A stretch of 64,000 nucleotides of DNA from an uncultured Bacilli bacterium (GCA_934148845.1 CAKPDH010000003.1:65789-129788), one strand, 5' to 3'. Numbered from the stretch's first letter, positions 6,678 to 59,633 are shown. Notes: a model not told the origin generated them from the letters alone. Made by a program: numbers and translations.

Positions 6678-6697
6678 ATTTAGCAAGGAGGTAATCA

Positions 6698-7552: not shown

Positions 7553-7562
7553 GAGATATTAT

Positions 7563-36376: not shown

Positions 36377-36384
36377 ATTCTTAA

Positions 36385-36420
36385 TTAATTGGAGTACTAA
36401 TACATTAGTATTCCTTTTTT
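36385..36420 (+). terminator. weak intrinsic terminator
   Basis: GGAGTACTAA-taca-TTAGTATTCC imperfect stem followed by TTTTTTT. Confidence 0.4.
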
Positions 36421-36461
36421 TATTTATTTATTGTATAATTATATAGAATAGGAGTGGTTTT

Positions 36462-39122: not shown

Positions 39123-39139
39123 GAGGAGAATAAAGAGAT

Positions 39140-40015: not shown

Positions 40016-40043
40016 ATAAATAGAATAAAAAGGGTATGATAAT

Positions 40044-41228: not shown

Positions 41229-41240
41229 GAGGTATAAATT

Positions 41241-42143
41241 ATGAATACTGTTTTACTTTTTGTAATTGTATCTGCAATACTTATATTTGTAATTATATAT
41301 AGAAGTAGTGCAGGAACTGAAACTTATGAGTTTGTAAAAACTCAAGGTAGAAGACTATATAGTAAAGTTTCTCCATATACTTATAAAGAAATAAAGAAGA
41401 AAATAAGAGAAATGAAACAGGATTATACTGTTCAACAATATATTTTACACATTGTTATATTTGCAATAGGCGCAGGAGGTATAACTTATTTGTACTTTTA
41501 TAGCATAATTATTTCAATAATATATGCTTTAATAGCAGTAGCGCTTGTACCTTATATTAACTATTTAAGATGTAAAAGAATATATAGTGAATTTATTTTT
41601 GAACAAATCCAAGTATATACTACTAATACCATTATGGAATTTGCAACTACTCAAAGCTTTGTAAAAGCTCTTGAGGGTGTTAATTCATCAGGAGTATTAG
41701 AAGATCCATTAAAACATGATGTTCAGGTAATGATTGATATGGCTTATGAAAATGGTACAATAAATCAATCACTTGAATATATGAATTCTAAATATGATTT
41801 TTATATGGTAAGAAACATGCATCAACTATTTTTACAAATTACTAATGAGGGTTCTAAAGATGCTAGTGATTCACTTGAAAATATGTCAAATGATATAGAT
41901 ACACTTGTTGAAGGAGTGTATAGGGATAGAATCGATAGGGAAGCATTTTATAAAAAATTTCTTAGATTTGGATTAATACTTTACTTAATGATAGGTGTAA
42001 TACAACTTATGTTAGGTGAAACATATCAAGTAATGCTTAAACTATGGTATGCTCAGCTTTTATTACATATTATCGTAATAGTAAATACATTTTTCTTAAT
42101 GTCTGGAACCAAATTTTATAATGAGAATGTAGGTGCCGAATGA
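41241..42143 (+). CDS. tadB: TadB-like membrane protein (GspF-domain)
   Basis: N-terminal TM, cytoplasmic helical domain and C-terminal TMs, in the typical position after the ATPase. Confidence 0.6.
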   Translation: MNTVLLFVIVSAILIFVIIYRSSAGTETYEFVKTQGRRLYSKVSPYTYKEIKKKIREMKQDYTVQQYILHIVIFAIGAGGITYLYFYSIIISIIYALIAVALVPYINYLRCKRIYSEFIFEQIQVYTTNTIMEFATTQSFVKALEGVNSSGVLEDPLKHDVQVMIDMAYENGTINQSLEYMNSKYDFYMVRNMHQLFLQITNEGSKDASDSLENMSNDIDTLVEGVYRDRIDREAFYKKFLRFGLILYLMIGVIQLMLGETYQVMLKLWYAQLLLHIIVIVNTFFLMSGTKFYNENVGAE

Positions 42144-42940
42144 GTATCTGGTTTTATGTACTTATCGCTGCAATTTTTATATTTGTAGTATGTTATAATA
42201 ATATTATTAATGTAAAAACTATAATAACTCAAGTAAATCCTATCTTACTTAAGTTTATGGAAAAAGACTATGAATTTTTATTAAGAGTAAAATATGGTGA
42301 AGCAGAATATGATATAAATTATTTATTTGGAATACGAATAAGAAATGGTATTATAACTAGTGCTGCTTTAATTCTTTTATTAATAGCAGCAGGCTATATG
42401 AGCTATATATTTGTTTTAGCATCATTAATTGCAGGCTTTCTGGCATTTAAAAGTAGTTATTTTACATTAAAAAATTATTACAAAGTAAGACTAAATTATA
42501 TAAGCTCTATGTTACCATATTTCTTGAAAAGCTTAGAAATATTAGTACAACATTATACAGTACCAGTAGCTTTATCAAGAAGTATTGATACCGCGCCAGA
42601 AATATTTAGACCAGGATTAAAACGTTTAGTAGCAAAAATAGACTCAGGTGATTCATCAATACAACCATATGTTGACTTTGCTAATGAATATCCTGTTAGA
42701 GATTCTATGAGAATGATGAGATTATTATATCGTTTAGGACTTGGTACTAATCAAGATAAACATGAGCAAATAATGATGTTTTCAAGAACAGTATCATCAC
42801 TTCAAAATAAAGCAAGAGAAATAAAATATAAAAATAGACTTGAATCTTTTGAAAAAAGAACAATGGTTATGTTATTTGTAACAGGTGGTGGAGTATTACT
42901 TGTATTATTCCTATCAATGACACTAATGATGCAAATATAA
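42140..42940 (+). CDS. tadC: TadC-like membrane protein (GspF-domain)
   Basis: Same topology class as tadB. Start overlaps the previous stop (ATGA coupling). Confidence 0.55.
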   Translation: MSIWFYVLIAAIFIFVVCYNNIINVKTIITQVNPILLKFMEKDYEFLLRVKYGEAEYDINYLFGIRIRNGIITSAALILLLIAAGYMSYIFVLASLIAGFLAFKSSYFTLKNYYKVRLNYISSMLPYFLKSLEILVQHYTVPVALSRSIDTAPEIFRPGLKRLVAKIDSGDSSIQPYVDFANEYPVRDSMRMMRLLYRLGLGTNQDKHEQIMMFSRTVSSLQNKAREIKYKNRLESFEKRTMVMLFVTGGGVLLVLFLSMTLMMQI

Positions 42941-43024
42941 TAAAAAAAACTAAAAAATGTTGAAAAATAAAACAAAAATATGATATACTAAAAGTGTAAT
43001 ATTATAAAGGTAGGTGATATATAA

Positions 43025-43276
43025 ATGAAAGAAGCAGCAGGAGAAGCTAACATGACAGTAATTACAATAGTATTAATAGCAATCGTACTTGCAGTTGGTA
43101 CACTTATTGTAAATACAATGATGAAAAATACAAAAAATAGTAGTGCTTGTTCAGCATGTGGCGGTTCTTGGAAGGGAGGTAAATGTATTGATCCTGATAA
43201 TAGTAATAATCTTATTGATTATACGTCTTGTTTATCAGGTGACCCTGCAAAACCAGCCCCAACACCAACACCTTAG
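43025..43276 (+). CDS. small TM protein, possible Flp-type pilin
   Basis: 83 aa with a short N-terminus, one hydrophobic helix, a Cys-rich middle and a Pro-rich tail. The canonical G/XXXXEY Flp motif is not evident. Confidence 0.3.
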   Translation: MKEAAGEANMTVITIVLIAIVLAVGTLIVNTMMKNTKNSSACSACGGSWKGGKCIDPDNSNNLIDYTSCLSGDPAKPAPTPTP

Positions 43277-43459
43277 TGTTGATGAAGTAAAAAAACTAAT
43301 GGGTAATGACCATAAGAGAGCTAATTTTTAGTTCTCTTTTATTATGGCTTATTTTTAAATGTTCTATATAATTAATTTTTTGTATAGAGTTATTTGGACT
43401 AAAAGTGATTGAATTTCTAAAATTTTTATGATATATTTAATATAGTAAGGAGGATAGAT

Positions 43460-44989
43460 ATGTTTAAGGTAAAAAGAGGTTTTTGGCTGTTTTTGTTTTT
43501 AATGTTTTTGCCTATATTGAATGTATATGCATTTTGTGTAGCTAAAGGTGATTTTGAGTATTGTTTTGATTCTGATGGTACTCAAGTTAGTGGGCCTAAG
43601 GGGGAACTTGATGATGTTATTTCATATGATGCACAAACTAATACTATAACTTTTAATAATTTTAGTGGTAAATATTTAGAAACTGCAGATAAAAGAAAGT
43701 TAAATTTAGTTTTTAAAGGAAGAAATTTATTTACTGAGTATATTAAAATAAGTGATGATTTAATAAATATTAGTGGTGATGGGGAATTAGTATTAGAAGT
43801 AAATGATGAAATTAATTCATTAATTGAGCTTTTTGGGTATCAAAATGAGTATGTTGGTAGTTATTCTACAATTAATATTAATGATATTAAAATAACTATA
43901 ACTGGTAATTTAAAGTATGATCAAGTAGGTATTGATGCAGTAGGGGATTTAAATTTTAAAAATACTAATATAAATATTTCTAATATAAATACTGGCGTTT
44001 TTTTTGGTGGAAGGTTTTTTGCAGATAATATTGGTTTAAATATATCAAATGTAGATACTGGCATGCTTATATCTGGTACAACTAAGTTAGATGATTCTAA
44101 TATAAATATTACTGATTTTAGTGAGTATGGTATGCATATTAGAACATCTACAATGGAGATGCAAGAGTTAGATATTACTAATAGTAATGTTTTTATAGAT
44201 GGAAAGTCTAAAGGTATAGGTGGATTATTATATGTAGGTGAAGAATTTAATCTTATAGATGGTTCATTTTTAATAAAAAATTGTAAGTATGGTATTTTTA
44301 GTAATGAAGCTGAGAATTTAGGCTTTATAAATATTAATGGTAAGTTAGATATTATAGATTCTCTTAGCGCAGCTATTTTACTAAGGGATGAGTCTAATTT
44401 TTCATATAATAAAAATAATATAGAGTTAAGTGGTGATTATGTACTTAGTGATTATATTGATTCTTTATATGGAGCTGGTTTTACTTATGCCAGTGAAAAA
44501 TTACCATATGGATATGATGATTTAGATGGAGAAATGGAAATTGAAATGACCGAGAGTGATTCGGCTAAGGTAGCTAAATCTATAAGCTTTTCTAAAAAGT
44601 ATAAAGAAAATAAATTGCTTGAGCAAAGTAAAAATGAATTAAAGGATAAAGATGATCTTACTTTGAGATTTGATTTAGATGTTTCAAAATTTTTATATTT
44701 GTATGTGGATGGTAAGTTATTAAGTAGAGAAAAAGGCGATTATACAGTTAAGTCTGGTAGTACGGTTGTTACTATTTCTAATAAATATTTGAGTACTATT
44801 AAGTCTGGGAATCATAATGTGAAAGCAGTATTTTCTGATGGTGTTGCAAGCGCTAATTTTAAAACTAATATAGAAAATCCAAATACAGGAATGAATGATG
44901 TAAATATTATTTTAATTATAATATTTACATTTAGTATACTATCTTATTTATTAATAAGAAGACGTAGTAAATTTCAAAAATCAGTGTAA
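43460..44989 (+). CDS. cell-wall-anchored surface protein with beta-helix-like repeats and NPNTG sortase-B sorting signal
   Basis: Signal peptide. Repetitive N(I/V)xxSN(I/V) parallel-beta-helix-like segments. The C-terminus carries NPNTG, then a hydrophobic helix, then RRRSKFQKSV, which is the class B sortase signal architecture. Confidence 0.6.
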   Translation: MFKVKRGFWLFLFLMFLPILNVYAFCVAKGDFEYCFDSDGTQVSGPKGELDDVISYDAQTNTITFNNFSGKYLETADKRKLNLVFKGRNLFTEYIKISDDLINISGDGELVLEVNDEINSLIELFGYQNEYVGSYSTININDIKITITGNLKYDQVGIDAVGDLNFKNTNINISNINTGVFFGGRFFADNIGLNISNVDTGMLISGTTKLDDSNINITDFSEYGMHIRTSTMEMQELDITNSNVFIDGKSKGIGGLLYVGEEFNLIDGSFLIKNCKYGIFSNEAENLGFININGKLDIIDSLSAAILLRDESNFSYNKNNIELSGDYVLSDYIDSLYGAGFTYASEKLPYGYDDLDGEMEIEMTESDSAKVAKSISFSKKYKENKLLEQSKNELKDKDDLTLRFDLDVSKFLYLYVDGKLLSREKGDYTVKSGSTVVTISNKYLSTIKSGNHNVKAVFSDGVASANFKTNIENPNTGMNDVNIILIIIFTFSILSYLLIRRRSKFQKSV

Positions 44990-45027
44990 AGCTTCAATAT
45001 TTTGAAGCTTTTCTAATAGGTGGTAAA

Positions 45028-46602
45028 ATGAGTAATAAGATTAAAATTATAGTAAAGAATAATGATATTATATTTTCTTTATATAATAGAAATATAAATG
45101 ATGAAAATTTAAATAATACTAATATAATTGATATAAAAAACTTAAAGTTTACATCTGAATATATAAGTAATAATTTAGATTTAATGTCTTCTTTTTTAAA
45201 TTTAATTGTATTAAAAAATAATATAACTAAATTAGTTATAACTGATTTAGAAGTAGCGCCTATAATAATTAAATTATCTTATAATATAAATATTCATAGA
45301 TTAATTTTTACTCAAGATATTGAGTTAAATTATACTATATCAGATGCTTTACTTAAAAATAGTAATTTAACTTATATAGAGTGTTATAGTATGCCTAAAG
45401 TTATGTTTAATAGATTTAATTCTTCTATTGTTGAAACGAGATGTAAAGTACCGTTTACAAGCAATTTTATGAAATATAATAATATTAATACTTATTCTAA
45501 GCTATGTAATATAGATAGAATAATAATTGATAGTTATTTAACTAAGAATGACTTAGATGATATTATTTATTTTTTTAGTGTAAATAGAAGTGTTAAAAGA
45601 ATTATAATAAAAGGATATAAAAGGAATAATTTAATAGTTTTTTTACAAATGATTGATAAATATAAATTAAAACATATTAAAATTATATTAGTTGAAGATT
45701 CCCTCGTTTTAAAAGATCTTACTAATGATATGGAACTTTTTACTAAATTAAGTAAAAAATATAATGTAAGTATTAAAATTAAGTATTCGGATTCTTATAA
45801 GAATAAAAACAAATTTAAAGAATTATGTATTATAATAATTAAATTAACTTTACTATTATTAATTTTGGTAGTGATTATTTTAATGCTATTTAAAAAAAAT
45901 ACGATAAAAAATGATAATAAGGGAATTGAAGATAATTTGAAAATAATAGATGAAGTAGTAAGTGATAATTCTAATATAAGTGATAATACGAATTCTTCAA
46001 GTTCTAATTTATATACTAGTCCCTATTATACTAAGTATGATAATGTGTATTCTAAATTGAAAGAAATAAATAACGATACTGTTGGATGGATTAAAGTTAA
46101 AAATACTAAAGTAGATTATCCTGTCGTACAAGGTAGTGATAATGAGTATTATCTAGATCATGCTTTTAATAAAACTAAAAATGGCGCAGGATGGATATTT
46201 GCTGATTATAGAAATAATTTAGATAGTTTAGATGATTTAGATGATAATACTATTATATATGGTCATGATATACAAAAGAATTTTCTTATGTTTGGTTCAC
46301 TTGAATTTTTACTAACTGATGCTTGGAATAGTGATTTAAATAATTTAGATATAACTTTTAATATAAGAGGTAATGATGTTATATTTAAGATATTTTCAGT
46401 GTATACAATTGATAAAACTAGTGATTATTTAGTAACTAATTTTTTAAATAAAGAAGATTATAAAAAATTTATTTTAATGATAAAAAATAGGAGTATTAAA
46501 GATTTTAATGTAGATATAGATGTATACTCTAAAATACTCACATTATCAACTTGTTATAAGACTGATTCAAAAAGATTAGTAGTGCATGCAAAAAAAATGT
46601 AA
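45028..46602 (+). CDS. srtB: class B sortase with ~270-aa N-terminal cytoplasmic extension
   Basis: C-terminal catalytic domain GWIKVKNTKVDYPVVQGSDNEYYLDH...GWIFADYRN...YGHD...LTLSTCY matches SrtB. A single TM lies at ~aa 270-290. The N-terminal domain is Leu/Ile-rich with LRR-like periodicity. Confidence 0.8.
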   Translation: MSNKIKIIVKNNDIIFSLYNRNINDENLNNTNIIDIKNLKFTSEYISNNLDLMSSFLNLIVLKNNITKLVITDLEVAPIIIKLSYNINIHRLIFTQDIELNYTISDALLKNSNLTYIECYSMPKVMFNRFNSSIVETRCKVPFTSNFMKYNNINTYSKLCNIDRIIIDSYLTKNDLDDIIYFFSVNRSVKRIIIKGYKRNNLIVFLQMIDKYKLKHIKIILVEDSLVLKDLTNDMELFTKLSKKYNVSIKIKYSDSYKNKNKFKELCIIIIKLTLLLLILVVIILMLFKKNTIKNDNKGIEDNLKIIDEVVSDNSNISDNTNSSSSNLYTSPYYTKYDNVYSKLKEINNDTVGWIKVKNTKVDYPVVQGSDNEYYLDHAFNKTKNGAGWIFADYRNNLDSLDDLDDNTIIYGHDIQKNFLMFGSLEFLLTDAWNSDLNNLDITFNIRGNDVIFKIFSVYTIDKTSDYLVTNFLNKEDYKKFILMIKNRSIKDFNVDIDVYSKILTLSTCYKTDSKRLVVHAKKM

Positions 46603-46687
46603 TTGTTACATTTTTTTAAATATACGATGATTGACATTTTTAATAGTTATGATATACTTATAATAGTAAAAGTAGGTGATTATACAT

Positions 46688-47188
46688 ATGCATGAGAGTC
46701 TTGGATATTCGGTAATTTTTAATATAGTAATTGTATTTGTTGTAATTATTTTTGTATTTATAGGATCTGTTTTAGTTTATTTTAAAAGTAATAAAGTAAG
46801 TAATGTTATAGCTGATTCAATTGAAAAATATTCTGGATATAATAAGTTATCTATAGAAGAAATAAATAAAAACATGAGTAATCTTGGATATAATAAAATG
46901 AAAATTAAGTGTGAAAACTTGAGTGAAGATGATAAATGTAAAGTAGAGGAAGGTAATCAATTACTTAATGATGGCTCAGATGGATATTGTGTATATTTTT
47001 GTCAGACTACAAAAGAAGTAGAAAAACAAAATGAAAGTGGAAATATAGTTAAGACTAAAGTATACTATTATTATTATAAAATTAAAACAAATATGATGTT
47101 TAAAATACCAATAATAAATGATATATTACCACTTCCTATATGGTCAACAACTAATGTTATGTATGATTTTGATGAAAATTTAAAATAG
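46688..47188 (+). CDS. TadE-like/pseudopilin-like protein (paralog of 47206)
   Basis: MHESLG|YSVIFNIVIVFVV... is a prepilin-like N-terminus. It shares ...SIEKYSGY/IEENGGY and (L)GY(N/L)K motifs with the next ORF. RBS AGGTGA. Confidence 0.4.
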   Translation: MHESLGYSVIFNIVIVFVVIIFVFIGSVLVYFKSNKVSNVIADSIEKYSGYNKLSIEEINKNMSNLGYNKMKIKCENLSEDDKCKVEEGNQLLNDGSDGYCVYFCQTTKEVEKQNESGNIVKTKVYYYYYKIKTNMMFKIPIINDILPLPIWSTTNVMYDFDENLK

Positions 47189-47205
47189 TAAAGTAAGGTG
47201 ATTTT

Positions 47206-47646
47206 ATGAAAGCATCAATAGGCGGAAGTATGCTTTTATATATAGTTTTGTTTTTTGTTTCTGTTGTAATTTTGTTTTTTGTAGGCATAATAGCTTATAA
47301 TAAAGCTTATAGAGTTAAAAATAGAATTGTAAATATAATAGAAGAAAATGGTGGATATACAGATGATCTTAAGGCTACAATAGATGGTGAACTTAAAAAA
47401 TATGGTTATTTGACTACAAAGGTTAGTGTAGATTGTAAGAAGGCATCATCACATAGTAATTCTACTTGTGAAAATCTACCTGCTGGTCAATATAAGTATT
47501 GTATATGTCATACTACTCATAATAGTGGTACAGTTTATGAAGTAATAACTTATACACAGTTTGATATACCACTTATAGGTGGTATATTATCAAACGCAGT
47601 ACATGGTGAGACTAAAACTTTAAGCGTAAATTACGATTATAGATAG
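47206..47646 (+). CDS. TadE-like/pseudopilin-like protein
   Basis: MKASIGG|SMLLYIVLFFVSVV... leader ends in GG and a hydrophobic helix follows. Paralogous to the previous ORF. Confidence 0.4.
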   Translation: MKASIGGSMLLYIVLFFVSVVILFFVGIIAYNKAYRVKNRIVNIIEENGGYTDDLKATIDGELKKYGYLTTKVSVDCKKASSHSNSTCENLPAGQYKYCICHTTHNSGTVYEVITYTQFDIPLIGGILSNAVHGETKTLSVNYDYR

Positions 47647-47662
47647 AATAGAGGGAAATTTC

Positions 47663-48661
47663 ATGAATGTAATTATATCAAATAAAAATCAAGCGTTGCT
47701 AGAAAATTTAGGTATAGATGTAATTAAAGAGATGAATGGCGAGTTTGAGGTAGACGAAATAATAGCAACTTTTCAAAATTTTTTTTATCAAAGAATGATT
47801 TTGGATATAACGGCTATTAAAAATTACTTGGATATTAGGAATTTACAAAAACTTTCAATTTCTTTAAATATGGAAAAAGTAATATTGCTTTTGGATGGAA
47901 CTGATGCAACAAGCAATCCTACATTTTTATCTAATTTAGTATCAATGGGAATATATAATTTTACTAAAAATGTAGAAGGTATTCAGTATCTTTATAATAC
48001 TCCAAATACTTATCGTGATGTAGCACAGTTTCATAACTTGACACAACAAACTACTCAAAGTAATCAACAACAAAGTGTTATGTCTGGTATAAATAATAAA
48101 AATAATCCTATAGCTAATTCTATTTCAGTAGAAGAAAGTGGTGCGACTAGAGTAATAGGTGTAAAAAACTTAACTAAACAATCTGGTGCGACAAGTTTAG
48201 TGTATATGATTAGAAATGTGCTTAAATCTAGATATAAAGTAATTGCTATAGAAGCTGATAAAACTGATTTTACATATTTTAATGATAATACGTTACTTTC
48301 TGTTCCAACATCTGATATTGGAACTGTTATAAAGAGAAATAGCGATATGGATGTTATTGTGATAGATATTAATAATAGTGTGGTAGCTGAAGGCTTTTGT
48401 CAAGATGTTCTATATCTAATAGAACCTTCAATAATAAAATTACAAAAATTAATGGCACTTAATGCAGTAGCGCTTCAAGGCCTAAAAAATAAAAAAGTTG
48501 TATTAAATCAAAGCTTGTTATCAAATCGTGATGTTGCAAATTTTGAATATGAGGCGAGAGTAAATGTATTTTATAATCTTCCTCCCCTTAATGAAAGAGT
48601 AAAAGAACAACCAGATTTAGCTGCTTTATTAGTAAAATTAGGTTTTAATAAGTTAAGATAA
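47663..48661 (+). CDS. TadZ/CpaE-like protein (receiver-like N-domain + ParA/MinD-like domain with degenerate P-loop)
   Basis: RVIGVKNLTKQSGATSLVYMIRNVL...KVIAIEADKT aligns to the VIAV.S.KGGVGKTT...VLLVDLD pattern of CpaE/TadZ, but the Walker A is degenerate. Confidence 0.45.
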   Translation: MNVIISNKNQALLENLGIDVIKEMNGEFEVDEIIATFQNFFYQRMILDITAIKNYLDIRNLQKLSISLNMEKVILLLDGTDATSNPTFLSNLVSMGIYNFTKNVEGIQYLYNTPNTYRDVAQFHNLTQQTTQSNQQQSVMSGINNKNNPIANSISVEESGATRVIGVKNLTKQSGATSLVYMIRNVLKSRYKVIAIEADKTDFTYFNDNTLLSVPTSDIGTVIKRNSDMDVIVIDINNSVVAEGFCQDVLYLIEPSIIKLQKLMALNAVALQGLKNKKVVLNQSLLSNRDVANFEYEARVNVFYNLPPLNERVKEQPDLAALLVKLGFNKLR

Positions 48662-48663: not shown

Positions 48664-49161
48664 TTGACAATAAAGTCTTTAAACCGTATAATAATTGATA
48701 GATGGGTGATAAAATTGAAAATTAAATTGGCATACAGACTTATGTTTATATTTGTTATATCATTTATGTTAAGTACAAGCGTATTTGCAGAGTGTAAACC
48801 AGGAGATATTAACTGTTACAATAATTATCCTACTGACACACTTGTAAGCTGTGGTGATGGTATGATTAAAGAAATCCCACCTTTAATACCTAAAGTAACA
48901 AGTATAGTTTATACGACTTTTCAAATATTGGTTCCAATATTATTAGTTGTATTTAGTATGTTTGATTTAGTAAAAGCAATTTCTGCACAAAAAGAAGATG
49001 ATATAAAGAAGGGTCAAAAACAACTTATTAGAAGAATAATTGCAGGTGTTATTGTGTTCTTTGTATTTGTAATTGTAAAATTTGCTATAAGCATTTTAGC
49101 CGATAATAGTGCTGGCATTATTGACTGTGCGGATTGTTTTATAAGAAATAATTGTAAGTAG
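48664..49161 (+). CDS. VirB2/TrbC-like two-TM protein, paralog 1 (signal peptide, KEDDIKKGQKQ loop, C-terminal CxDC)
   Basis: Likely true start at TTG ~48712 (MKIKLAYRLMFIFVISFMLSTSVFA|E). Hydrophobic helix VPILLVVFSMFDL, conserved loop, second helix, C-terminus CADCF..NNCK. Confidence 0.4.
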   Translation: MTIKSLNRIIIDRWVIKLKIKLAYRLMFIFVISFMLSTSVFAECKPGDINCYNNYPTDTLVSCGDGMIKEIPPLIPKVTSIVYTTFQILVPILLVVFSMFDLVKAISAQKEDDIKKGQKQLIRRIIAGVIVFFVFVIVKFAISILADNSAGIIDCADCFIRNNCK

Positions 49162-49177
49162 ATTAAGGAGGATAAAG

Positions 49178-49597
49178 ATGAAAAAGAAATATTTAGTATT
49201 GTTTATAGTTATTGGAGCTTTGTTTTTTATGGCTCAACCAGTTTTAGCAGAAAATATAACAGCATGTGATGCATCTATTAAAGGAGCTGTAATTGATGAA
49301 AAAATACCTAATACTGTAAGCACAATAATTACAATAATTAAAATTGTAGTTCCAATTTTGCTAGTTGTGTTTGGTATGATGGATTTAGTTAAAGGAATTA
49401 TATCACAAAAAGAAGATGAAATTAAAAAAGGGCAACAAATATTTATTAAACGTTTAATAGCTGGAGCACTTGTGTTTTTTGTTTTCATAATCGTACAACT
49501 TATTATAAGCTTAGTAGCAGATGGCCAAAATGAAAATAAAAATATAATGACTTGTGTAAATTGTTTTATTAACAATAAAGGATGTAAAGGGAACTAA
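49178..49597 (+). CDS. VirB2/TrbC-like two-TM protein, paralog 2
   Basis: Signal peptide ...PVLA|EN. VPILLVVFGMMDL, KEDEIKKGQQ, second helix, C-terminus CVNCF..KGCKGN. RBS AAGGAGG. Confidence 0.4.
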   Translation: MKKKYLVLFIVIGALFFMAQPVLAENITACDASIKGAVIDEKIPNTVSTIITIIKIVVPILLVVFGMMDLVKGIISQKEDEIKKGQQIFIKRLIAGALVFFVFIIVQLIISLVADGQNENKNIMTCVNCFINNKGCKGN

Positions 49598-49615
49598 AAA
49601 TTAATAGGAGGCTTT

Positions 49616-50725
49616 ATGATTGAAGCATTAAAAAAATTAAATAAGGGCTTTTTGATCTTTGTAGGGGCGATTATTTTACTTCCAATATTTATTGTTATAT
49701 TTTTGGCTATTATTCAATCTTGCAATAGAAATATTGGATATGAATCTTATGAAGAAAAAATGGAAAAAGCTGCACTTAAATACTTTGATAAAAAAGGCAA
49801 TCCAAAGAATGAGGCCGAAGTGTTAAATGTTAGCCTTTCAACACTTGTTTCTGAAGGTTATATTAAGTCTACTTCTAAGTTACTTGGTGATGACAGTTGT
49901 AAAGGTTCTGTTACTGTAAGGCTTAATGGAACTTTGTTTGAAAGTAATAATGGGGGTTACCTACATCCTTTGGCAACTTTAAAGTGTAAAGATTATGAAA
50001 CAAAAACTTTAACAAGCTATCTTATGAAAGATTTAACTGATCAAGAATCTGGGCTTTATAAAGATAATTTTGGATATGTTTATAAGGGAGATAGTGTAAA
50101 TAACTATATTACATTATTAAAAAATAACTATGTTATTCTTGGAATTGATAATAATAATATAGTTAAATTATTGAAAGTAGATGGATCTTCTCTTACACAA
50201 ATGTGGGACTCTAAATATAATGTAGAGGTAGATGAAGCTTATGGAATTAATATATATAAAGATAGTGAAATGCGTAAGCAATTAATTGCTGATTACAATA
50301 AAGGTAAAATATTTGATAAAAAAGTAAAAGCAAAGCTAGTAAGTTATGATGCGTGTATAGGACTAAGAAGTATAAATGATACATCAATAAATAATGAAAA
50401 TGATTGTAATACTAAGCTTCCAAAGGAAACTGTTTCACTTATTAGTATTTCTGATTATGCAAAAGCTAGTTTAGATAAAAACTGTAATAATATACGTTCT
50501 CGTTCATGTAGAAATTATAATTATTTAAGAGGAGTTAATTTAACTACTTGGACAATTAATGGAGTCTTGGATAATACATACGAAGTATATTATCTTCAAT
50601 ATGGAATTATTAATCATCAAGAAGCTAATACTTTTGAAAACTATAATATTGTAGTATATATAGATGGTAATGAAAAAGTAAAATCTGGTAGTGGTTCTAA
50701 AGATAGTCCTTATATTTTGTATTGA
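49616..50725 (+). CDS. type IV pilin-like protein (prepilin-type N-terminus, large C-terminal domain)
   Basis: MIEALKKLNKG|FLIFVGAIILLPIF... has a class III leader with Gly at -1 and Phe at +1 but no Glu at +5. ...LSTLVSEGYIKS resembles the ComGC/PulG pilin core. RBS GGAGG. Confidence 0.45.
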   Translation: MIEALKKLNKGFLIFVGAIILLPIFIVIFLAIIQSCNRNIGYESYEEKMEKAALKYFDKKGNPKNEAEVLNVSLSTLVSEGYIKSTSKLLGDDSCKGSVTVRLNGTLFESNNGGYLHPLATLKCKDYETKTLTSYLMKDLTDQESGLYKDNFGYVYKGDSVNNYITLLKNNYVILGIDNNNIVKLLKVDGSSLTQMWDSKYNVEVDEAYGINIYKDSEMRKQLIADYNKGKIFDKKVKAKLVSYDACIGLRSINDTSINNENDCNTKLPKETVSLISISDYAKASLDKNCNNIRSRSCRNYNYLRGVNLTTWTINGVLDNTYEVYYLQYGIINHQEANTFENYNIVVYIDGNEKVKSGSGSKDSPYILY

Positions 50726-50773
50726 CATAAGTTATAAAAATATATATAATTTATTTAGAACGGAGGAAATAGT

Positions 50774-51160
50774 ATGATGTTTTTAAAACTTGGAATGGAT
50801 GGAACATATAGATGTGGTAATTTAGATTTTGAATTTTCTGGTACTTTTCCATATATAATTTCGACACTTATTACATTAATAAAAATAATTGTACCAATCT
50901 TATTAATTATATTTGGAATGCTTGATTTAGGTAAAGCTGTTGTAGCGGCAAAAGAGGATGAGATTAAAAAGGGACAACAAACATTTATAAAAAGAGCTAT
51001 AACTGCTGTTATCGTATTCTTTGCAATACAAATTGTACAAATTGTTATTAATTTTGTATCTAGTAAAGATCCTAATGTAGTAAATTGCTTTAATTGTTTC
51101 GTTAACGGAAAAGAAAGCGATAAAGGTTGTATTGATTTAAATAAATCATATGACGAATAG
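50774..51160 (+). CDS. VirB2/TrbC-like two-TM protein, paralog 3 (no cleavable signal peptide)
   Basis: VPILLIIFGMLDL, KEDEIKKGQQ, second helix, C-terminus NCFNCF..GKESDKGC. RBS GGAGGAAA. Confidence 0.4.
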   Translation: MMFLKLGMDGTYRCGNLDFEFSGTFPYIISTLITLIKIIVPILLIIFGMLDLGKAVVAAKEDEIKKGQQTFIKRAITAVIVFFAIQIVQIVINFVSSKDPNVVNCFNCFVNGKESDKGCIDLNKSYDE

Positions 51161-51233
51161 TGATTAATCATTGATTAATCATTTTTTTTTTGATATAATA
51201 TGCATGATTATATTGGTTTATGGAGGAAGATAT

Positions 51234-53231
51234 ATGTCTTTAATTATAGAGTGGATTAGAAATATGATGTTTAGCATAGATAAAATAATATATGCTATGA
51301 TATCAAAAGTATATGATTTATTAATTACAATTGCTAGGACTTCACCATTATCGCAAGCAGACATACTTGCAATAGCTGATAGAATATATAAATTATTGGC
51401 TATTTTTATGGTGTTTAAGGTAACTTTTTCGTTAATCATGTATGTAGTAAATCCTGATGATTTTACTGATAAAAGTAAAGGATTTGGTAAGTTATCGCTT
51501 AACATAGTTCTTGTTTTTGCGCTTTTAATACTTACTCCTCATATATTTAACATGGCATATGATCTTCAGAGGATCGTTCTTGAAGATAACGCCATAGCTG
51601 GTTTAATATTTGGCGAAAAAAATGATAAAGATAATGACTTTTTTACAAGTGCTGGAGATGACATGGCATATATTGCTATATCGCCTTTCTTTGTACCTGA
51701 TGTATCTATTCAAAAAGGTTCACTTTATAACTGTACTACTTTATTAAAAGATAATAAAATGAATGAATCTTGTTCAGGTATTTCTAATGACAGTTTGACA
51801 AAAGTAGCATCATCATCTACCACGTTATACGATTTAACAAAAAAGACAGGTAGTACCTTTACAGATACAATGCTTAAAAATTATGTTACTGGAATAAACA
51901 ATAAAAGCTTAGGAATGGTTTTTAGAAAAGAACTTGTAGAAGCTCAAGTAGATGGCGAATTTATTATGGATTATTCATATATCATTTCAACGGCGGTTGG
52001 TGTGATAATACTTATACTTTTAGTAAACTTTTGTTTAGATGTTTCAATAAGAAGTATTAAATTTGCATTTTTACAATTAATTGCTCCAATTCCAATAATT
52101 TCATATATAGATCCAAAAAGTGGAAAAGATGGATTATTTAAAAAATGGACACAATTATGTGTTAAAACATATTTAAGCTTATTTATACGTTTATTGGCAC
52201 TTTATTTTGCAGTTTATATAATTTCAATGGTTGGAGATTTGGGACTTGTAGATGTTGTTGATAGTTCTTACGTTACAAGTAGACTTATTCTAGTTATAAT
52301 TATAATAGGCGCTCTTATGTTTGCAAAACAACTTCCAAATATATTAAAAGATCTTGGAATTAAACTTGACTCTGATGGATTTAAACTTAATCCTTTAAGA
52401 AGAATTGAAAATGGAGCTTTAGGAGGCAAAATATTAAAAAAGCCTAATGATTTGCTTGGAAAAGCTGGTAAAGCTGCATTGTTTGCACCTGCAATAGGGG
52501 CTGGATTGTTTGGTAAAAAAGCTATAGGTGCTATAGATGCTGCTAGAAACGGAAAAGGTCTTAAACAAGGATGGGATAGAACACATGGAAAATTATATAA
52601 TAATTTAAATAAGAAATTAGATGAATGGGCACCAGATAGAGCAGAAGCTAGAAAAAGTGAAAGAACTGGTAGAGAAGAAGTTGCGGCTATGCATAATAAA
52701 TGGACAAAAGGTAAAGAAGTAGCAGATAAATTAAAACGTTTTAATCCTGATAAACCTTGGGATGCTTTAGATGGATCAGACGTATCGGCGTACAATGCAA
52801 TATATAAAAACCCAGAATTTATAAGATCAAGAATGAATTTGGATCGCGCTGATGCTAAAAATAAAATCTTACATAGAATATCTGAACAGACCATGAGAGG
52901 TAGTAGTGTAGAGGAAGCTTTAAATGCAGAACTGGATAATATAAAAAAGCTTGATTCTAGTTCTCAAAATGATTTATTTAAAATGGCTGGATTGAAATTG
53001 AACGCTACTGGAACAGCACTAACACCGGATGGTCCTTCTGTTACGAAAGAACAAGCAACAGCTAGATTTACTGAAATGTTAGATAAAACTAGTAAAACAG
53101 TGAGTGGAATGGAGAAAGTACATGAAAGTATAAGAAAACAAAATCCAAATGATGCAGCCACAGAAGATGCTTTAAAACATGTAAAATATAATACTACGGA
53201 TCCAACAGATTCAAGTCGAAAATATAGTTAA
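51234..53231 (+). CDS. VirB6-like polytopic membrane protein (TcpH / Tn916-Orf15 class) with Lys/Ala-rich C-terminal tail
   Basis: ~8 TM helices in the first ~400 aa. Charged low-complexity C-terminal region. Directly upstream of the VirB3-like and VirB4 genes. RBS GGAGGAAG precedes the ATG at 51234. Confidence 0.5.
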   Translation: MSLIIEWIRNMMFSIDKIIYAMISKVYDLLITIARTSPLSQADILAIADRIYKLLAIFMVFKVTFSLIMYVVNPDDFTDKSKGFGKLSLNIVLVFALLILTPHIFNMAYDLQRIVLEDNAIAGLIFGEKNDKDNDFFTSAGDDMAYIAISPFFVPDVSIQKGSLYNCTTLLKDNKMNESCSGISNDSLTKVASSSTTLYDLTKKTGSTFTDTMLKNYVTGINNKSLGMVFRKELVEAQVDGEFIMDYSYIISTAVGVIILILLVNFCLDVSIRSIKFAFLQLIAPIPIISYIDPKSGKDGLFKKWTQLCVKTYLSLFIRLLALYFAVYIISMVGDLGLVDVVDSSYVTSRLILVIIIIGALMFAKQLPNILKDLGIKLDSDGFKLNPLRRIENGALGGKILKKPNDLLGKAGKAALFAPAIGAGLFGKKAIGAIDAARNGKGLKQGWDRTHGKLYNNLNKKLDEWAPDRAEARKSERTGREEVAAMHNKWTKGKEVADKLKRFNPDKPWDALDGSDVSAYNAIYKNPEFIRSRMNLDRADAKNKILHRISEQTMRGSSVEEALNAELDNIKKLDSSSQNDLFKMAGLKLNATGTALTPDGPSVTKEQATARFTEMLDKTSKTVSGMEKVHESIRKQNPNDAATEDALKHVKYNTTDPTDSSRKYS

Positions 53232-53251: not shown

Positions 53252-53578
53252 ATGGGTAATGATTATAATTATTTAATTCCTGCTAATTCAAAGAAGAGTG
53301 CTTTAATATTTGGAAGATTTACAGGAGTTGATTTAACTATTTTCTTAGTAGGAATAGGAATATCATTTATACTTATGATGTTCTTACCTACTCAGAAGAT
53401 ATGGGTTGCGGTAATTGCTATATTGCCTGCTTTAATAGCCGGATTCTTAGTTTTCCCTGTACCCAATTATCATAATGTTAGAACTGTTATAAAAAATGCA
53501 ATTGATTTTTATACTACAAGGCAAAGATATATATGGAAAGGTTGGTGTGTATTAGATGGCGAAAGAGATAAAAAGTAA
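53252..53578 (+). CDS. VirB3-like small 2-TM protein (PrgI/TcpE/Tn916-Orf17 class)
   Basis: 108 aa with two adjacent hydrophobic helices, immediately 5' of and overlapping the VirB4 gene. This is canonical synteny. Confidence 0.5.
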   Translation: MGNDYNYLIPANSKKSALIFGRFTGVDLTIFLVGIGISFILMMFLPTQKIWVAVIAILPALIAGFLVFPVPNYHNVRTVIKNAIDFYTTRQRYIWKGWCVLDGERDKK

Positions 53579-54101
53579 ATATACTGATGTTCCTGTTAGG
53601 TCTATTACTAATGGTGTAATTTTACTTGATAATGGTAAAAAAGTAACTGGTGTTAAAATAATGCCAAGGAATATATTTATATTAGATCAAAGTATGCAAG
53701 ATGCAATTATTATGAATTTAAAAAATGTATATAATGCAATTGATTATGAGTTTTGGATTGTGGTTGCTGATAGACCGGTTGATATAAATGTGTATCTTTC
53801 ACAGTTACAATTGCTATATAATCAGTCATCAGATGCAAAAATTAGAAAGTTAATTATGGAAGATATAAATAAAGGAAATATGTTTATGAATAATAGTGTT
53901 GTTGATACTGAGTATTTCTTACTTTTTAAAGATAAAAGTGATGATGTATTACAAAAGAGAGTTAGAAATTTAATTAATAATTTTGCGAGTGCTGGCTTAA
54001 CAGCTTTTCAAACTAATAATGATGATTTGCGAATGATTTTGGATAATTTCTTAAATGGAGGACAAACTACTAAGTTTGGTACGGTGTTATCATGGATGTA
54101 A
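53556..54101 (+). CDS. VirB4-family ATPase, N-terminal segment (separate ORF)
   Basis: The 181-aa ORF ends at TAA inside the overlap ATGGATGTAA with the next ORF. Together the two ORFs total ~775 aa, the size of a typical VirB4. Confidence 0.55.
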   Translation: MAKEIKSKYTDVPVRSITNGVILLDNGKKVTGVKIMPRNIFILDQSMQDAIIMNLKNVYNAIDYEFWIVVADRPVDINVYLSQLQLLYNQSSDAKIRKLIMEDINKGNMFMNNSVVDTEYFLLFKDKSDDVLQKRVRNLINNFASAGLTAFQTNNDDLRMILDNFLNGGQTTKFGTVLSWM

Positions 54102-55876
54102 GAAGTCAAATTGCCCCAAAGGGGTTAGAATTTAAATCAAATGAATTTGTTATTAGTGATAAATATGCTTGTATATTAACTGTTATTTCATATCCAAAAT
54201 TTATATATCCTGGTTATTTGAGTAATTTAACTAGTATGGCAGGTATTAAAGTTGTTATTAAACATATACCACTTCCTTTTAGTACAATGAGTAAAATGTT
54301 AAATAAGGAACTTGCTGACTTAAAACAAAGATATCAAGAAGAAAAAGATAAAACTATTCAAGAACGTATTAGACAAGATTATGAATCTCTTGAAATGTTT
54401 ATATCTAACCTAGCATCTAGTCAATCTAAAATTTTTGATTTTCAAATGCATGTTATGATTACTGCTGACACAAAGGAAGAATTAGATTCAAAAAAAATAC
54501 AGGTAAAAAATTATTTAGAAGCTATGGAAATGCGTGCTATACCTTTGAGATTTGAACAAGATAAGGTATTGAAATCTATTTTACCAATATATGAAAAACA
54601 AGATATTGAAGATAGAATTGGTACACCAATTCCGTCTCCAACTATAGCTGCTATGTATCCATTTATTTTTGATAGTATTAAGGATCCAGGATTATCTACC
54701 TTACTTGGTATTGATTTTTCAGGGGGAGTTATATTATTTAATCAATTTTTATATCAAATTAAAAAAGAGCATAATAGAAATAATGCTAATATGATTATTT
54801 TAGGTACAAGTGGTAGTGGTAAATCAACTGCTGCAAAATTACTTTTAAGAAGTAATATTAGAAATAATTATCAAATTGTTGTTATTGATCCAGAAGGCGA
54901 ACTTGAAGAAATGGCTAATACATTTAATGGCGATTTCATAAGTCTTGGTAAAGGTGGAGATTATGGTATGATAAATCCACTTGAAGTTATAGTAGATGCT
55001 GATGAAGAGGAAAAAAGACAAGGTCTAGGTTATACTGTATTTACAAGAACACTTCAGACAATAAAGGCATTTTTAAAGTATTATGATCCATCTATTACTG
55101 AAGATGTTGTAAATATGTTTAGTGAAGTAGTACAAGAAACATATAAAAGATTTGGAATAGATTTTAATTCAGATTTTAGTAATTTTAAATCAAGTGATTA
55201 TCCAACTTTTAAAGATGTATATGCTACAATAAAAGGACGTATTTTATCAATTCCAGAAAAAACTCAGGAAAAAGATGTATTAGAGCAACTTGAAATAAAA
55301 ATTAGACCAATAGTTAGAGAATTAAAATATTATTTTGATGGACATACAACTATAAGTCCAAAAAGTAATTTTGTGGTATTTAATATTAAAGAACTTATGA
55401 ACGCAGATAAAAATATTAGAAACGCATTATTCTTTAATATATTAAAATATGCATGGGGGCTTACACTTAATCCTGCTATAAATACTATAATGATGGTAGA
55501 CGAAGCACACGTATTATTAAGTGGTGGTAATACACTTGGAGCAGATTTCTTAGCACAGATACAAAGACGTGCTCGTAAGTATAATACTGGTACTATAATA
55601 ATAACGCAACAACCAACTGACTTTAGTGATCCTTCTGTTATAACACAAGGAAAAGCAATATTTGATAATGCTTCTTATTATTTAGTTATGGGATTAAAAA
55701 AGCAAGCTGTAGATGATCTTTCTAAATTAATTGATTTAAATGATAATGAAAAAGAAAGTATTAAACAATATGATCAAGGTTCAGCACTTTTTGTATGTGG
55801 AAGCAGAAGAATGAGAATAAATATTATAGTTACTGATGAAGAATTAGATTCATTTGGTAGTGGTGGAGGACTATAA
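54092..55876 (+). CDS. virB4: VirB4-family conjugation/T4SS ATPase (TcpF/PrgJ/Orf16-like), main segment
   Basis: Walker A IILGTSGSGKST. Walker B IMMVDEAHVLL. Conserved ...ARKYNTGTIIITQQPTDF motif of VirB4/TraE. Confidence 0.85.
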   Translation: MDVRSQIAPKGLEFKSNEFVISDKYACILTVISYPKFIYPGYLSNLTSMAGIKVVIKHIPLPFSTMSKMLNKELADLKQRYQEEKDKTIQERIRQDYESLEMFISNLASSQSKIFDFQMHVMITADTKEELDSKKIQVKNYLEAMEMRAIPLRFEQDKVLKSILPIYEKQDIEDRIGTPIPSPTIAAMYPFIFDSIKDPGLSTLLGIDFSGGVILFNQFLYQIKKEHNRNNANMIILGTSGSGKSTAAKLLLRSNIRNNYQIVVIDPEGELEEMANTFNGDFISLGKGGDYGMINPLEVIVDADEEEKRQGLGYTVFTRTLQTIKAFLKYYDPSITEDVVNMFSEVVQETYKRFGIDFNSDFSNFKSSDYPTFKDVYATIKGRILSIPEKTQEKDVLEQLEIKIRPIVRELKYYFDGHTTISPKSNFVVFNIKELMNADKNIRNALFFNILKYAWGLTLNPAINTIMMVDEAHVLLSGGNTLGADFLAQIQRRARKYNTGTIIITQQPTDFSDPSVITQGKAIFDNASYYLVMGLKKQAVDDLSKLIDLNDNEKESIKQYDQGSALFVCGSRRMRINIIVTDEELDSFGSGGGL

Positions 55877-58379: not shown

Positions 58380-58391
58380 GTGAGGTGTAAG

Positions 58392-59633
58392 ATGCAAAAA
58401 AGAATATTAAGAATTATTACATTGTTTTCAATATTACTTAGTCCATTAAATATTGTTAGTGCGTATGAATATGTTGATTCAAGTCGCTCTAATGTGATAA
58501 GTTCAATGATAAATGATATATTTAATAAAAAAAGACAATATGATCAAATCTTTGGCGATATGATTGATGAAGAAACGACTGTATATTCAAAAACTAATAC
58601 ATTATATTGGTGGCCTATAGGTAGTATGGAGACTACAAAAAGTGGAAATATTACTTACGCAATGGGTAATCCTGAATATGTAAATATTTCTTCTGGATTT
58701 CAAGGACGTAATGATCCAGCAACAGGTAAGTGGGTAAATCATACAGGACTTGATATTCCATCTGGAGGAAGGGTAAATGAAGTAAATGTAATTGCTGCAA
58801 ATAGTGGTATTGTAGTATATCCAAATAAAAATTCTAAAATAGATTGTCCAACAGGACGTCAAAGTTATTCTCCTTGTAATGGTTATGGAAATTACGTAGT
58901 TATTCAACACAGTGATGGAAACTATACTTTGTATGGTCACTTATATCAAAATTCTATTTTAGTACGTTCTGGTGATAAAGTTGAGCAAGGACAAGTAATC
59001 GCTAAAGTAGGAAGTAGTGGTTACTCTACTGGAGCGCATGTACATTTTGAAGTAAGAATTGGTCAAAATGCCCAGAATGCTACTGTAGATCCACTTGAAT
59101 ATGTAAATGCTTCAAATCCAAGACCTGTATCAACTTCAGATGATAATGAATTGATAAAGATGCTAAAACATCTTGAAGGTGCAAAAACTAGTGGCGATAG
59201 TTATGTAGTTTATCAACCTAAAAATGATGATCCAACGGTCGGTGTTGGTGTAAATTTAAAATATACTGCTGATATGTTTAAAAAATATAATTATGATGTA
59301 TCTAATGTTAAAGCAGGTGATACACTTCCAAAGGATGTTGTTGATAATGTAATGATGGATATAATAGAAGATAAAAAAAGCTCTATTAGATCTATTATAT
59401 CTGAAAATAATATAACTCTTAAGGAATATCAAATTGATGCATTAGCTTTAATGTATTATCAAGCAGGTAACATTAATGGCTTTGTTACAAACTACAAAAA
59501 ATATGGATGTACTGAAGAATTTTATAAAAAATGGTTTTATAATAAAGGATTAAATAAAGAATATATAGAAGGTATCCATAATAGACGAAATAAAGAGTGG
59601 TTATTATTTTCTACTGGTAAGTATACATATTAA
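58392..59633 (+). CDS. bifunctional peptidoglycan hydrolase: M23 (LytM) peptidase + GH24/phage-lysozyme-like domain
   Basis: M23 motifs HTGLDIP...GNYVVIQHSDGNYTLYGHL...GSSGYSTGAHVHFEV. C-terminal LKHLEGAKTSGDSYVVYQ...DPTVGVGVNL resembles the LEG...Y.D..G..T.G.G core of T4-type lysozymes. Signal peptide. RBS GGTGAGGTG. Confidence 0.7.
   Translation: MQKRILRIITLFSILLSPLNIVSAYEYVDSSRSNVISSMINDIFNKKRQYDQIFGDMIDEETTVYSKTNTLYWWPIGSMETTKSGNITYAMGNPEYVNISSGFQGRNDPATGKWVNHTGLDIPSGGRVNEVNVIAANSGIVVYPNKNSKIDCPTGRQSYSPCNGYGNYVVIQHSDGNYTLYGHLYQNSILVRSGDKVEQGQVIAKVGSSGYSTGAHVHFEVRIGQNAQNATVDPLEYVNASNPRPVSTSDDNELIKMLKHLEGAKTSGDSYVVYQPKNDDPTVGVGVNLKYTADMFKKYNYDVSNVKAGDTLPKDVVDNVMMDIIEDKKSSIRSIISENNITLKEYQIDALALMYYQAGNINGFVTNYKKYGCTEEFYKKWFYNKGLNKEYIEGIHNRRNKEWLLFSTGKYTY

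Follow-up and report, generated by a model that had tools for sequence, protein, structure and literature searches.

Pilin homologs were not found in the Gram-positive classes by Guglielmini et al. (PMC4027160), and a 2025 review describes VirB2 as absent from Gram-positive type IV secretion systems (T4SSs), with the Patescibacteria as the sole exception (PMC12857230). Whether the Patescibacteria obtained their pilins together with a Gram-positive-type system or borrowed them was left open, since such pilins had not been known from any Gram-positive class (PMC12102498). Here, we analysed a 64-kb, AT-rich stretch of DNA (ca. 25% G+C; hereafter, the window) from an uncultured Bacilli bacterium, in which three related genes, pil1, pil2, and pil3, lie between a Tad-type pilus module and the genes of a T4SS (Table 1). 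A preliminary description of this DNA had taken their products for VirB2/TrbC pilins and had stated that such pilins are not a recognised part of Firmicutes systems; the latter statement agrees with both publications (PMC4027160, PMC12857230). We consider, with a probability of about 0.65, that pil1 to pil3 encode pilin-type subunits of the adjacent Gram-positive T4SS. That the proteins form an extended pilus is more doubtful, and we place it a little short of even odds.

The three plus-strand open reading frames (ORFs) of the preliminary description were recovered (48664-49161, 49178-49597, and 50774-51160). In the alignment, the products of pil2 and pil3 were 50% and 40% identical to that of pil1, respectively, and VPILL, D..L.K, KED.IKKGQ, I.R.I, VFF, and C..CF were invariant across the three, FI(K/R)R being likewise common to them. 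The helix motif FGM(L/M)DL, which had been given as shared, holds for pil2 and pil3, whereas pil1 reads FSMFDL. Beyond CxxCF, all three keep one more C-terminal Cys and one N-terminal Cys. The pil1 protein consists of an N-tail with three Cys, the helix VPILLVVFSMFDL, a KEDDIKKGQK loop, a second helix, and a CADCF...C tail. Since the TTG at 48664 opens a perfect -35 box and a GGGTGA Shine-Dalgarno sequence (48704-48709) precedes the TTG at 48715, pil1 is probably shorter than listed, with 48715 as its true start and a product of 148 amino acids (aa). From this start, the protein has an ordinary signal peptide, MKIKLAYRLMFIFVISFMLSTSVFA, which ends in VFA and is followed by ECK; that of pil2 ends in VLA, followed by E. 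The ATG of pil3 is preceded by GGAGG at a distance of 8 nt, and the upstream space is too short for a signal peptide. The earlier claim that two of the proteins have signal peptides and one does not was thereby borne out. A hydrophobic N-terminus was missing in 52 of 57 pil3-class orthologs as against 1 of 35 pil1-class orthologs.

In the profile comparison with pilins that the preliminary description had proposed in advance, the family was aligned by hhalign with the Patescibacteria pilins of PF18895 (T4SS_pilin) at a probability of 93.9% (E = 1.6e-7, 75 columns), and the N-tail, both helices, and the loop between them were matched without a change of register. Other alignments gave 74.4% (a broader alignment) and 86% (a separate run). 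Reversed-alignment controls gave 1.6-3%, with scores of 17-19 as compared to 38-50 for the real alignments, and the VirB3-like, pseudopilin-like, TadC-like, and p165 controls from the locus did not exceed 1.4% against either partner. The comparison set was the top 120 of 1,595 proteins retrieved by one bait sequence; all 120 carried a precomputed PF18895 assignment, about a quarter of them also PF04956, several were named 'pilin', and those with an organism name were from Patescibacteria. In single-sequence scans, 33 of 150 family representatives matched PF18895 at E ≤ 0.01 (best, 9.5e-7), and PF18895 was the top match in four of five other members and in none of the five after sequence reversal, on which a DUF621 match also vanished. 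From these comparisons we assign the family to the T4SS_pilin superfamily as a remote branch, outside PF18895 by that family's own cut-off. The VirB2/TrbC reading thus stood with respect to profile-profile homology to PF18895 and did not with respect to a direct match to PF04956, which was not significant. The pil proteins were also considered as type IV (Tad/Flp) pilins and rejected as such: they have two helices and a Sec-type signal peptide, and no Flp/TadE match was obtained at E ≤ 0.1 in Pfam.

The AlphaFold2 (AF2) model of pil3 (predicted local distance difference test score, pLDDT, 86) contained strands at residues 11-14 and 20-22, helices at 24-58, 61-98, and 100-111, and a C-tail strand at 119-121; the hairpin helices comprise 35 and 38 residues, and the short C-terminal helix carries the CxxC. 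The pil2 model (pLDDT 70.5) likewise contained a helical hairpin (42-75 and 79-113). The turn of the hairpin holds six K/R residues. The layout is that of VirB2-type proteins, with a signal peptide (except in pil3), AXA-type sites in pil1 and pil2, and a predicted hairpin with a charged turn. Among 169 distinct sequences, the loop had the lowest entropy (0.81 bits), followed by the helices (1.2-1.5 bits) and the tails (2.3-2.5 bits). Such conservation would be expected of a tube subunit whose turn contacts a conserved partner or the lumen and whose tails point outward. Between species, the pilins were 45-61% identical, as compared to 81% for VirB4 and the CpaF-like protein, and pil3 was the most conserved class (median ortholog identity, 61%).

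The total number of Cys was even in 161 of 178 proteins, the N-tail nearly always holding an odd number (1, 3, 5, or 7) and the C-tail three, and four Cys were retained in at least 90% of 150 cluster representatives. This pattern suggests that the two tails are tied together. It could arise from one link that joins the N-tail to the C-tail and a pair inside the latter, or from a four-Cys metal site, either of which would hold the tails to each other. In the AF2 model of pil3, the strands containing C14 and C119 lie in the two tails.

Promoter sequences matching TTGACA-17-TATAAT at all 12 positions occurred only twice on both strands of the window, before pil1 and before pil3, and the chance expectation was ca. 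0.04 perfect sites in the 7.7-kb region scanned. Near-consensus promoters, defined as those matching at least 11 of the 12 positions, preceded all of 30 orthologous pil3 genes (15 perfect), 31 of the 71 pilin genes that come first behind the CpaE-like gene, and 24 of 141 other pilin genes; only one, before a VirB4 N-terminal gene (VirB4N), was found among several hundred VirB6, VirB3, VirB4, CpaE-like, CpaF-like, TadB/C-like, and p369 genes. Strong private promoters on the subunit genes would suit proteins that have to outnumber the machine by far. A promoter matching at 11 of 12 positions, with an extended -10 TG, also lies at 46631-46658, just upstream of the first pseudopilin-like gene (pp170; start at 46676), and a perfect one precedes 11 of its 60 orthologs elsewhere. 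Subunit genes of the Tad module thus also have private strong promoters.

A search with the family profile found 8,729 cluster representatives (50% identity) at E ≤ 1e-3, and thus the paralog pattern is not due to chance. For pil2, 614 close relatives were found in metagenomes, the few named ones being 'hypothetical protein [Bacilli bacterium]'. Scanning one genome per species yielded at least 216 loci, of which 78, from metagenome-assembled genomes (MAGs) of animal guts, were fetched; gene-order counts refer to a set of 81 loci, and labels such as L001 denote individual loci. The MAGs of the 78 loci were named Bacilli, Erysipelotrichaceae, Tenericutes/Mycoplasmatota, and Acholeplasma sp. CAG:878, and included one circular 1.2-Mb genome. 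Nine contigs (L020, L022, L023, L032, L051, L053, L054, L061, and L074) sat in MAGs labelled Muribaculaceae, Bacteroidaceae, Roseburia, or Actinomycetes, which most likely reflects mis-binning or mislabelling rather than transfer. A plasmid collection searched with the DNA of the region and with the pil2 protein gave nothing.

Where the contig allowed, the gene order was nearly invariant: Tad module, CpaE-like gene, pilin gene(s) with or without p369, VirB6, VirB3, VirB4N, the VirB4 C-terminal gene (VirB4C), and VirD4. The order pilin(s)-VirB6-VirB3-VirB4 was kept in 65-72 of the 81 loci, and the VirB6-like position in 72. The co-occurrence with VirB4 in other genomes that the preliminary description had predicted was found in 65-67 of the 81, and VirB6, VirB3, and VirB4 accompanied the pilins wherever the contig was long enough, with L056 as the only exception. 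The number of pilin genes per locus ranged from one to six, four paralogs being present in L001. The 'tandem triplication' reported earlier stands in that three related genes are present, but a recent event was ruled out: the paralog classes are common to different species and predate them, which indicates an old gene family. The gene p369 was kept between the penultimate and the last pilin gene in 45 loci. It had been called pilin-like, but its product matches no pilin profile; scans of Pfam, NCBIfam, and PHROGs gave no family match for it, nor did its profile find anything in the PDB.

Many pilin copies carry additional N-terminal domains (up to ca. 500 aa in relatives), and some loci have, in addition, a gene for 370-590 aa in which an ectodomain is joined to a pilin hairpin. 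Fusions of an ectodomain with the pilin hairpin, 370-790 aa long and with a signal peptide, occur at L014 10530-11822, L024 12530-13723, L079 8071-9849, and L083 9064-11439; the Bacilli examples have a Cys-rich ectodomain, and L014 and L024 carry the gene between pil3 and VirB6. These fusions, of which the window has none, look like adhesin-pilin fusions.

The genes downstream of pil3 encode PrgI/VirB3, a VirB6-like protein, a TrsD-like ORF, VirB4, a hydrolase, and a type IV coupling protein (T4CP), parts that would be expected of a mating-pair formation (MPF) system of the FATA class (the TrsD-like ORF in one subclass), and the VirB4 is closest to NF045975 of Mollicute integrative and conjugative elements (ICEs). 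The ORFs for VirB3, VirB4N, and VirB4C (53252-55876; L001 14469-17087) correspond to consecutive parts of the single Mollicute model NF045975. The split of VirB4 was conserved in 65-67 loci, and the two ORFs overlap by 10 nt in the window as compared to 1 nt in L001; since the overlaps differ between genomes, the split is a conserved feature and not a sequencing frameshift. A TrsD-like ORF followed by VirB4 has been reported for pGO1-type and Patescibacteria systems (PMC12102498). The whole system thus looks MPF-FATA-like rather than MPF-FA-like by its gene content. The MPF-FA frame of the preliminary description needs amending on this point, and NCBI already names a Mollicute pilin-like family, NF045849; the preliminary view that VirB2 is unrecognised in such systems agrees with the literature cited above.

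No VirB8-like or VirB5-like part was identified among the locus proteins. A 217-aa lipoprotein (p217; 57726-58379) encoded after a 609-aa ORF has the lipobox LLLTGC in 28 orthologs and invariant Cys at 104 and 127; no family match was obtained for it, its profile found nothing in the PDB, and it might be a VirB8-like or VirB7-like part. The locus and its immediate surroundings yielded neither a relaxase nor an integrase, the window ending shortly after VirD4, and no ORF in the window or the loci was similar to the MobP3 relaxase of pBMB67. The 849-aa and 609-aa ORFs were considered as relaxase candidates and dropped for lack of this similarity. The locus is chromosomal, with scpA/scpB, phosphoglycerate mutase, and tRNA methyltransferase genes upstream. 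The gene after VirD4 encodes a rhodanese, as it does in Acholeplasma sp. CAG:878, which hints at a fixed chromosomal site.

Several observations weigh against reading pil1 to pil3 as pilin genes. PF18895 was the top Pfam match for all three, but at 24.1 bits for pil1 and 18.1 and 19.4 bits for the others, below the gathering cut-off of 26.6 bits. Unrelated membrane families matched the 150 members as well (DUF621 in 51 and MamI in 46); since DUF621 outnumbers PF18895 (33), single-sequence Pfam matches alone are not evidence, and the NCBIfam scan of the 150 members gives no support because unrelated hairpin families (MamI, MscL) dominate it. For PF04956 (TrbC/VirB2), eight members were scanned, and the best E value, obtained with one of them, was 0.87. 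No solved pilin chain was retrieved from the PDB sequences with the family profile, and when two models were compared with the PDB by Foldseek, the hits were generic membrane hairpins apart from a non-significant Pyrobaculum conjugative pilin (E = 7.4). NF045849, whose cut-off is 40 bits, matched only pil1 at 15.4 bits, and 3 of the 150 representatives; the family hidden Markov model (HMM) missed the proteins at the VirB2 position of Spiroplasma, zrk4, and pBMB67 plasmids, and hhalign against nine Spiroplasma pilin-like proteins was marginal (P = 0.028, as compared to 0.36 for the reversed control). The bait for the PF18895 comparison set was a made-up, Patescibacteria-like pilin sequence, the retrieved proteins and their annotations being real. 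In L056 (6856-12005), from a Tenericutes MAG, a Tad module and one pilin gene are followed by the rhodanese gene with no T4SS, as if the entire T4SS had been cleanly deleted. Pilus formation, cleavage of the signal peptides, and the tie between the tails are all things that we infer, and we assume that disulfides can form in a host that is probably anaerobic.

An alternative that we regard as unlikely is that the proteins are T4SS components other than pilins, small membrane subunits that stay beside VirB6/VirB3 and form no polymer, comparable to small membrane proteins that are essential in other Gram-positive conjugation systems. Conjugative pili are not known from Gram-positive T4SSs (PMC4027160, PMC12857230), and the Tad module already provides a filament. 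Lacking a signal peptide and belonging to the most conserved class, pil3 could be a fixed machine part, and the fold is a plain membrane hairpin for which the fold search does not single out pilins. The profile-profile homology, however, is to the pilin family and not to VirB3. Perfect promoters on the subunit genes and not on the machine genes point to stoichiometric excess, and the fast-evolving tails, the variable copy number, and the big ectodomain fusions suggest surface exposure.

Gene order bears on a second alternative, a very improbable one, in which the proteins serve the Tad pilus as platform or anchor and are linked to the T4SS only by adjacency. While the array lies exactly between the CpaE-like gene and VirB6, in L048 a pilin gene and a T4SS are present and the 10 kb upstream are free of Tad genes, L065 is alike over the 1.4 kb available, and Spiroplasma plasmids keep pilin-like, VirB6-like, and VirB4 genes without Tad genes. 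A partner of the Tad pilus would account for L056, where the Tad module and a pilin gene persist without the T4SS, and the pseudopilin genes too carry near-consensus promoters; the Tad module, however, has its own Flp-like pilin and pseudopilins, and a Sec signal peptide with a two-helix hairpin, homologous to T4SS pilins, is not the design of a type IV pilin. That these are unrelated small membrane proteins (holin, bacteriocin-immunity protein, or Cys-rich exported peptide) present in the locus by chance is the least probable, since, small two-helix proteins with weak matches to many membrane families in single-sequence scans though they are, their position is fixed in 78 loci of different species, the PF18895 link is specific, and they fall in no holin or immunity family of Pfam or NCBIfam, PHROGs giving no holin either; such a placement was what the preliminary description had named as undermining the pilin reading.

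We describe the genes as belonging to the VirB2/T4SS_pilin kind, in a variant from a Gram-positive lineage that is present in several copies and, as we propose, cysteine-stapled. As pilin-type subunits, pil1 and pil2 would enter the membrane via Sec and be cleaved between VFA and E and between VLA and E, respectively, and pil3 would insert without a signal peptide. Each protein would form a membrane hairpin with both tails outside and the KEDEIKKGQQ-FIKR turn in the cytoplasm, and the N-tail Cys and the three C-tail Cys (CxxC...C) would join the tails by disulfides or metal in place of cyclisation. The dedicated consensus promoters may raise subunit abundance far above that of the machine. VirB4 and VirB6 could then pull the subunits out of the membrane and pile them up as a tube or a short conduit through the wall, the conserved turn lining the lumen and the variable tails and N-terminal add-on domains facing outward. 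The paralogs may be major, minor, or base subunits, or surface variants, and the neighbouring Tad pilus might supply cell-to-cell attachment.

Table 1. Coordinates of the pil genes, their promoters, and neighbouring features in the window
Feature	Position	Strand	Remarks
pil1, VirB2-like paralog	48715..49161	+	probable coding sequence, 148 aa; ORF as listed 48664-49161, 165 aa, TTG
pil2, VirB2-like paralog	49178..49597	+	139 aa; signal peptide, 1 N-tail Cys, CVNCF...C tail
p369, between pil2 and pil3	49616..50725	+	369 aa; N-terminal membrane anchor, Cys-rich ectodomain, 6 invariant Cys
pil3, VirB2-like paralog without signal peptide	50774..51160	+	128 aa; always last gene before VirB6
Perfect sigma-70 promoter before pil1	48664..48692	+	TTGACA-17-TATAAT; first bases are the TTG listed as pil1 start
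Perfect promoter before pil3	50722..50750	+	TTGACA-17-TATAAT; overlaps p369 stop; 24 nt upstream of pil3
VirB6/TrbL-like polytopic membrane protein	51171..53231	+	weak MMCAP2_0566 match; L001 ortholog weak TrbL_4 match
VirB3/PrgI-like	53252..53578	+	108 aa; PrgI 23.5 bits, VirB3; NF045975 positions 2-94
VirB4 N-terminal domain, separate TrsD-like ORF	53556..54101	+	181 aa; NF045975 positions 108-276, E = 1.3e-12
VirB4 ATPase, C-terminal part	54092..55876	+	594 aa; NF045975 positions 296-891, E = 1e-103
Cell-wall hydrolase, VirB1-type function	58380..59633	+	M23 peptidase and lysozyme domain
VirD4-type coupling protein	60619..62736	+	T4SS-DNA_transf E = 7e-58
Tad-type pilus module	38721..48661	+	DUF5411, CpaB-like, CpaF-like, TadB/C-like, Flp-like, pseudopilin-like, CpaE-like
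CpaB-like	39140-40015	+	Tad module
CpaF-like ATPase	40044-41228	+	Tad module
TadB/C-like genes	41241-42940	+	Tad module
Flp-like ORF	43025-43276	+	83 aa; Tad module
Two pseudopilin-like genes	46676-47646	+	Tad module
CpaE-like	47663-48661	+	degenerate Walker A; Tad module, directly before pil1
Antisense ORF over pil2	49234..49575	-	113 aa; by-product; 6.8% of synonymous recodings reach observed length
Antisense ORF over pil3	50755..51171	-	138 aa; by-product; 1.4% of synonymous recodings reach observed length

The preliminary description had attributed antisense ORFs over the pil genes to strong conservation. This explanation was not supported. No antisense ORF lies over pil1, and many other genes of the locus have 100-230 open codons in this antisense frame. 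Given the stop-poor frame across the locus and the recoding simulation, we rejected the antisense ORFs as real genes and judged them to be by-products of composition and protein sequence.

The Tad module of the window is complete and joined to the T4SS, and this composite also occurs at L083 18486-26022 and L092 26671-32982. In the window, the Tad module is interrupted by genes for a surface protein (509 aa) and a protein with a C-terminal sortase domain (524 aa) at 43460-46602, which are absent from L001; the 509-aa protein has a weak CBM_X2 match, and at its C-terminus NPNTG is followed by a hydrophobic stretch and a basic tail. The start of the locus (29655-38662) encodes proteins of 849 aa (no family), 1,354 aa (SpaA/prealbumin-like domains), and 517 aa and 216 aa (no family), the genes for the last two being conserved in 19-24 loci. 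These four are probably surface proteins and may be adhesins of the same system. A large serine recombinase (4234-5844, with unassigned plus-strand neighbours in 1-9451), an AIPR abortive-infection protein (17109-19082), and a collagen-repeat protein (19251-20087) could belong to other mobile or defence elements; housekeeping genes lie between them and the T4SS locus. The sole Rfam match in the window was one tRNA gene on the minus strand (28118-28201), beside scpB.

Reviews to December 2025 allow a Gram-positive VirB2 only in the Patescibacteria (PMC12857230), a picture that the present family would change. If our reading is true, pilin-type subunits are an ordinary, overlooked part of some Gram-positive systems, and thousands of 'hypothetical proteins' in animal-gut metagenomes gain a name and a hypothesis. 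The family, which is without curated annotation, offers a concrete lead on the origin of the Patescibacteria arrays, and its signal-peptide sites, the four-Cys tie of the tails, and the two consensus promoters are testable features. A bolder proposal, which we consider improbable, is that small-genome uncultured gut Bacilli carry a fixed chromosomal Tad and T4SS machine that builds a cysteine-stapled VirB2-type pilus. Bacillota would then have their first conjugative-type pilus, and the essential Patescibacteria arrays their missing Gram-positive counterpart or their donor lineage. No relaxase was found in the sequence examined, and such a pilus might be used for DNA uptake or cell-to-cell exchange rather than for transfer of a mobile element.

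Among known systems, the archaeal Ced/Ted pilins (PDB 8dft, Pyrobaculum calidifontis) are VirB2-like hairpins of ca. 100-112 aa in cells likewise without an outer membrane; 8dft was the only pilin among the Foldseek hits (template modelling scores, 0.50/0.60), and it was lost with the better pil3 model. Plasmids of the pAW63/pXO2/pBMB67 type and the Mycoplasmatota plasmid zrk4 (L092, L083) also encode a protein with a signal peptide and two transmembrane helices, TrbL/VirB6, PrgI, an ORF of ca. 230 aa, and a VirB4 of ca. 600 aa, along with a Tad-like set (SAF/CpaB, CpaE-like, CpaF-like, TadB/C-like, and small pilin-like genes). The CpaF-like ATPase of the pBMB67 (pAW63/pXO2) type was formerly called VirB11 (PMC1196294). 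VirB4C was 28% identical (E = 2e-74) to the VirB4 of the B. cereus-group/zrk4-type plasmids. These plasmids carry a MobP3 relaxase, whereas the present locus is chromosomal beside scpA/scpB and none was found; the 126-aa protein of pBMB67 (B. thuringiensis) matches neither PF18895 nor the family HMM, is single-copy, and is without the Cys pattern.

The classical VirB2/TrbC/TraA proteins (PF04956; T-pilin, RP4 TrbC, and F TraA) share the signal peptide, the two-helix hairpin, and the short charged cytoplasmic turn, and their gene likewise lies just upstream of virB3/virB4. T-pilin and RP4 TrbC are cyclised head to tail, which the proposed tie between the tails would mimic; no cyclase or TraF-like gene was identified at the locus. 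The mature proteins here are longer (ca. 115-128 aa), and the host is without an outer membrane.

The family Mbov_0395/MMCAP2_0565 (NF045849) of Mollicute ICEs and Spiroplasma plasmids (L082) has the same gene order, a hairpin, the VirB6-like Mbov_0396, the VirB4 Mbov_0397, and a T4CP; the leading gene of the Spiroplasma plasmids, which have no Tad genes, bears the NCBI name 'pilin-like conjugal transfer protein'. Both families match PF18895 at 18-24 bits, but the direct similarity between them is not significant (15.4 bits; P = 0.028; nothing with the family HMM). The Spiroplasma proteins are of ca. 90 aa, single-copy, without a signal peptide, and have at most one Cys, and they are read in genetic code 4 as compared to code 11 here.

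The PF18895 arrays of the Patescibacteria (PMC12102498; Southlakia epibionticum, PMC12857230) differ in that the present host belongs to the Bacillota (Bacilli) and its sequences fall below the PF18895 cut-off. The loop reads KEDEIKKGQQ here and GGNEEKVKKAK there, and four Cys are conserved here, whereas 95 of the 120 Patescibacteria proteins have none. A paralog without a signal peptide, the position beside VirB6 and a Tad module, and a VirD4 gene in the locus are further features of the present system. The two nevertheless share a single membrane, VirB6, PrgI/VirB3, and a TrsD-like ORF with VirB4; signal peptide and hairpin are likewise common to them, profile-profile probabilities being 74-94%, and no relaxase was seen near the present locus, a further likeness. 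With one to six copies, N-terminal extensions that vary, and a non-pilin gene set among the pilin genes, the array has the form of the Patescibacteria array L093 (PMC12102498).

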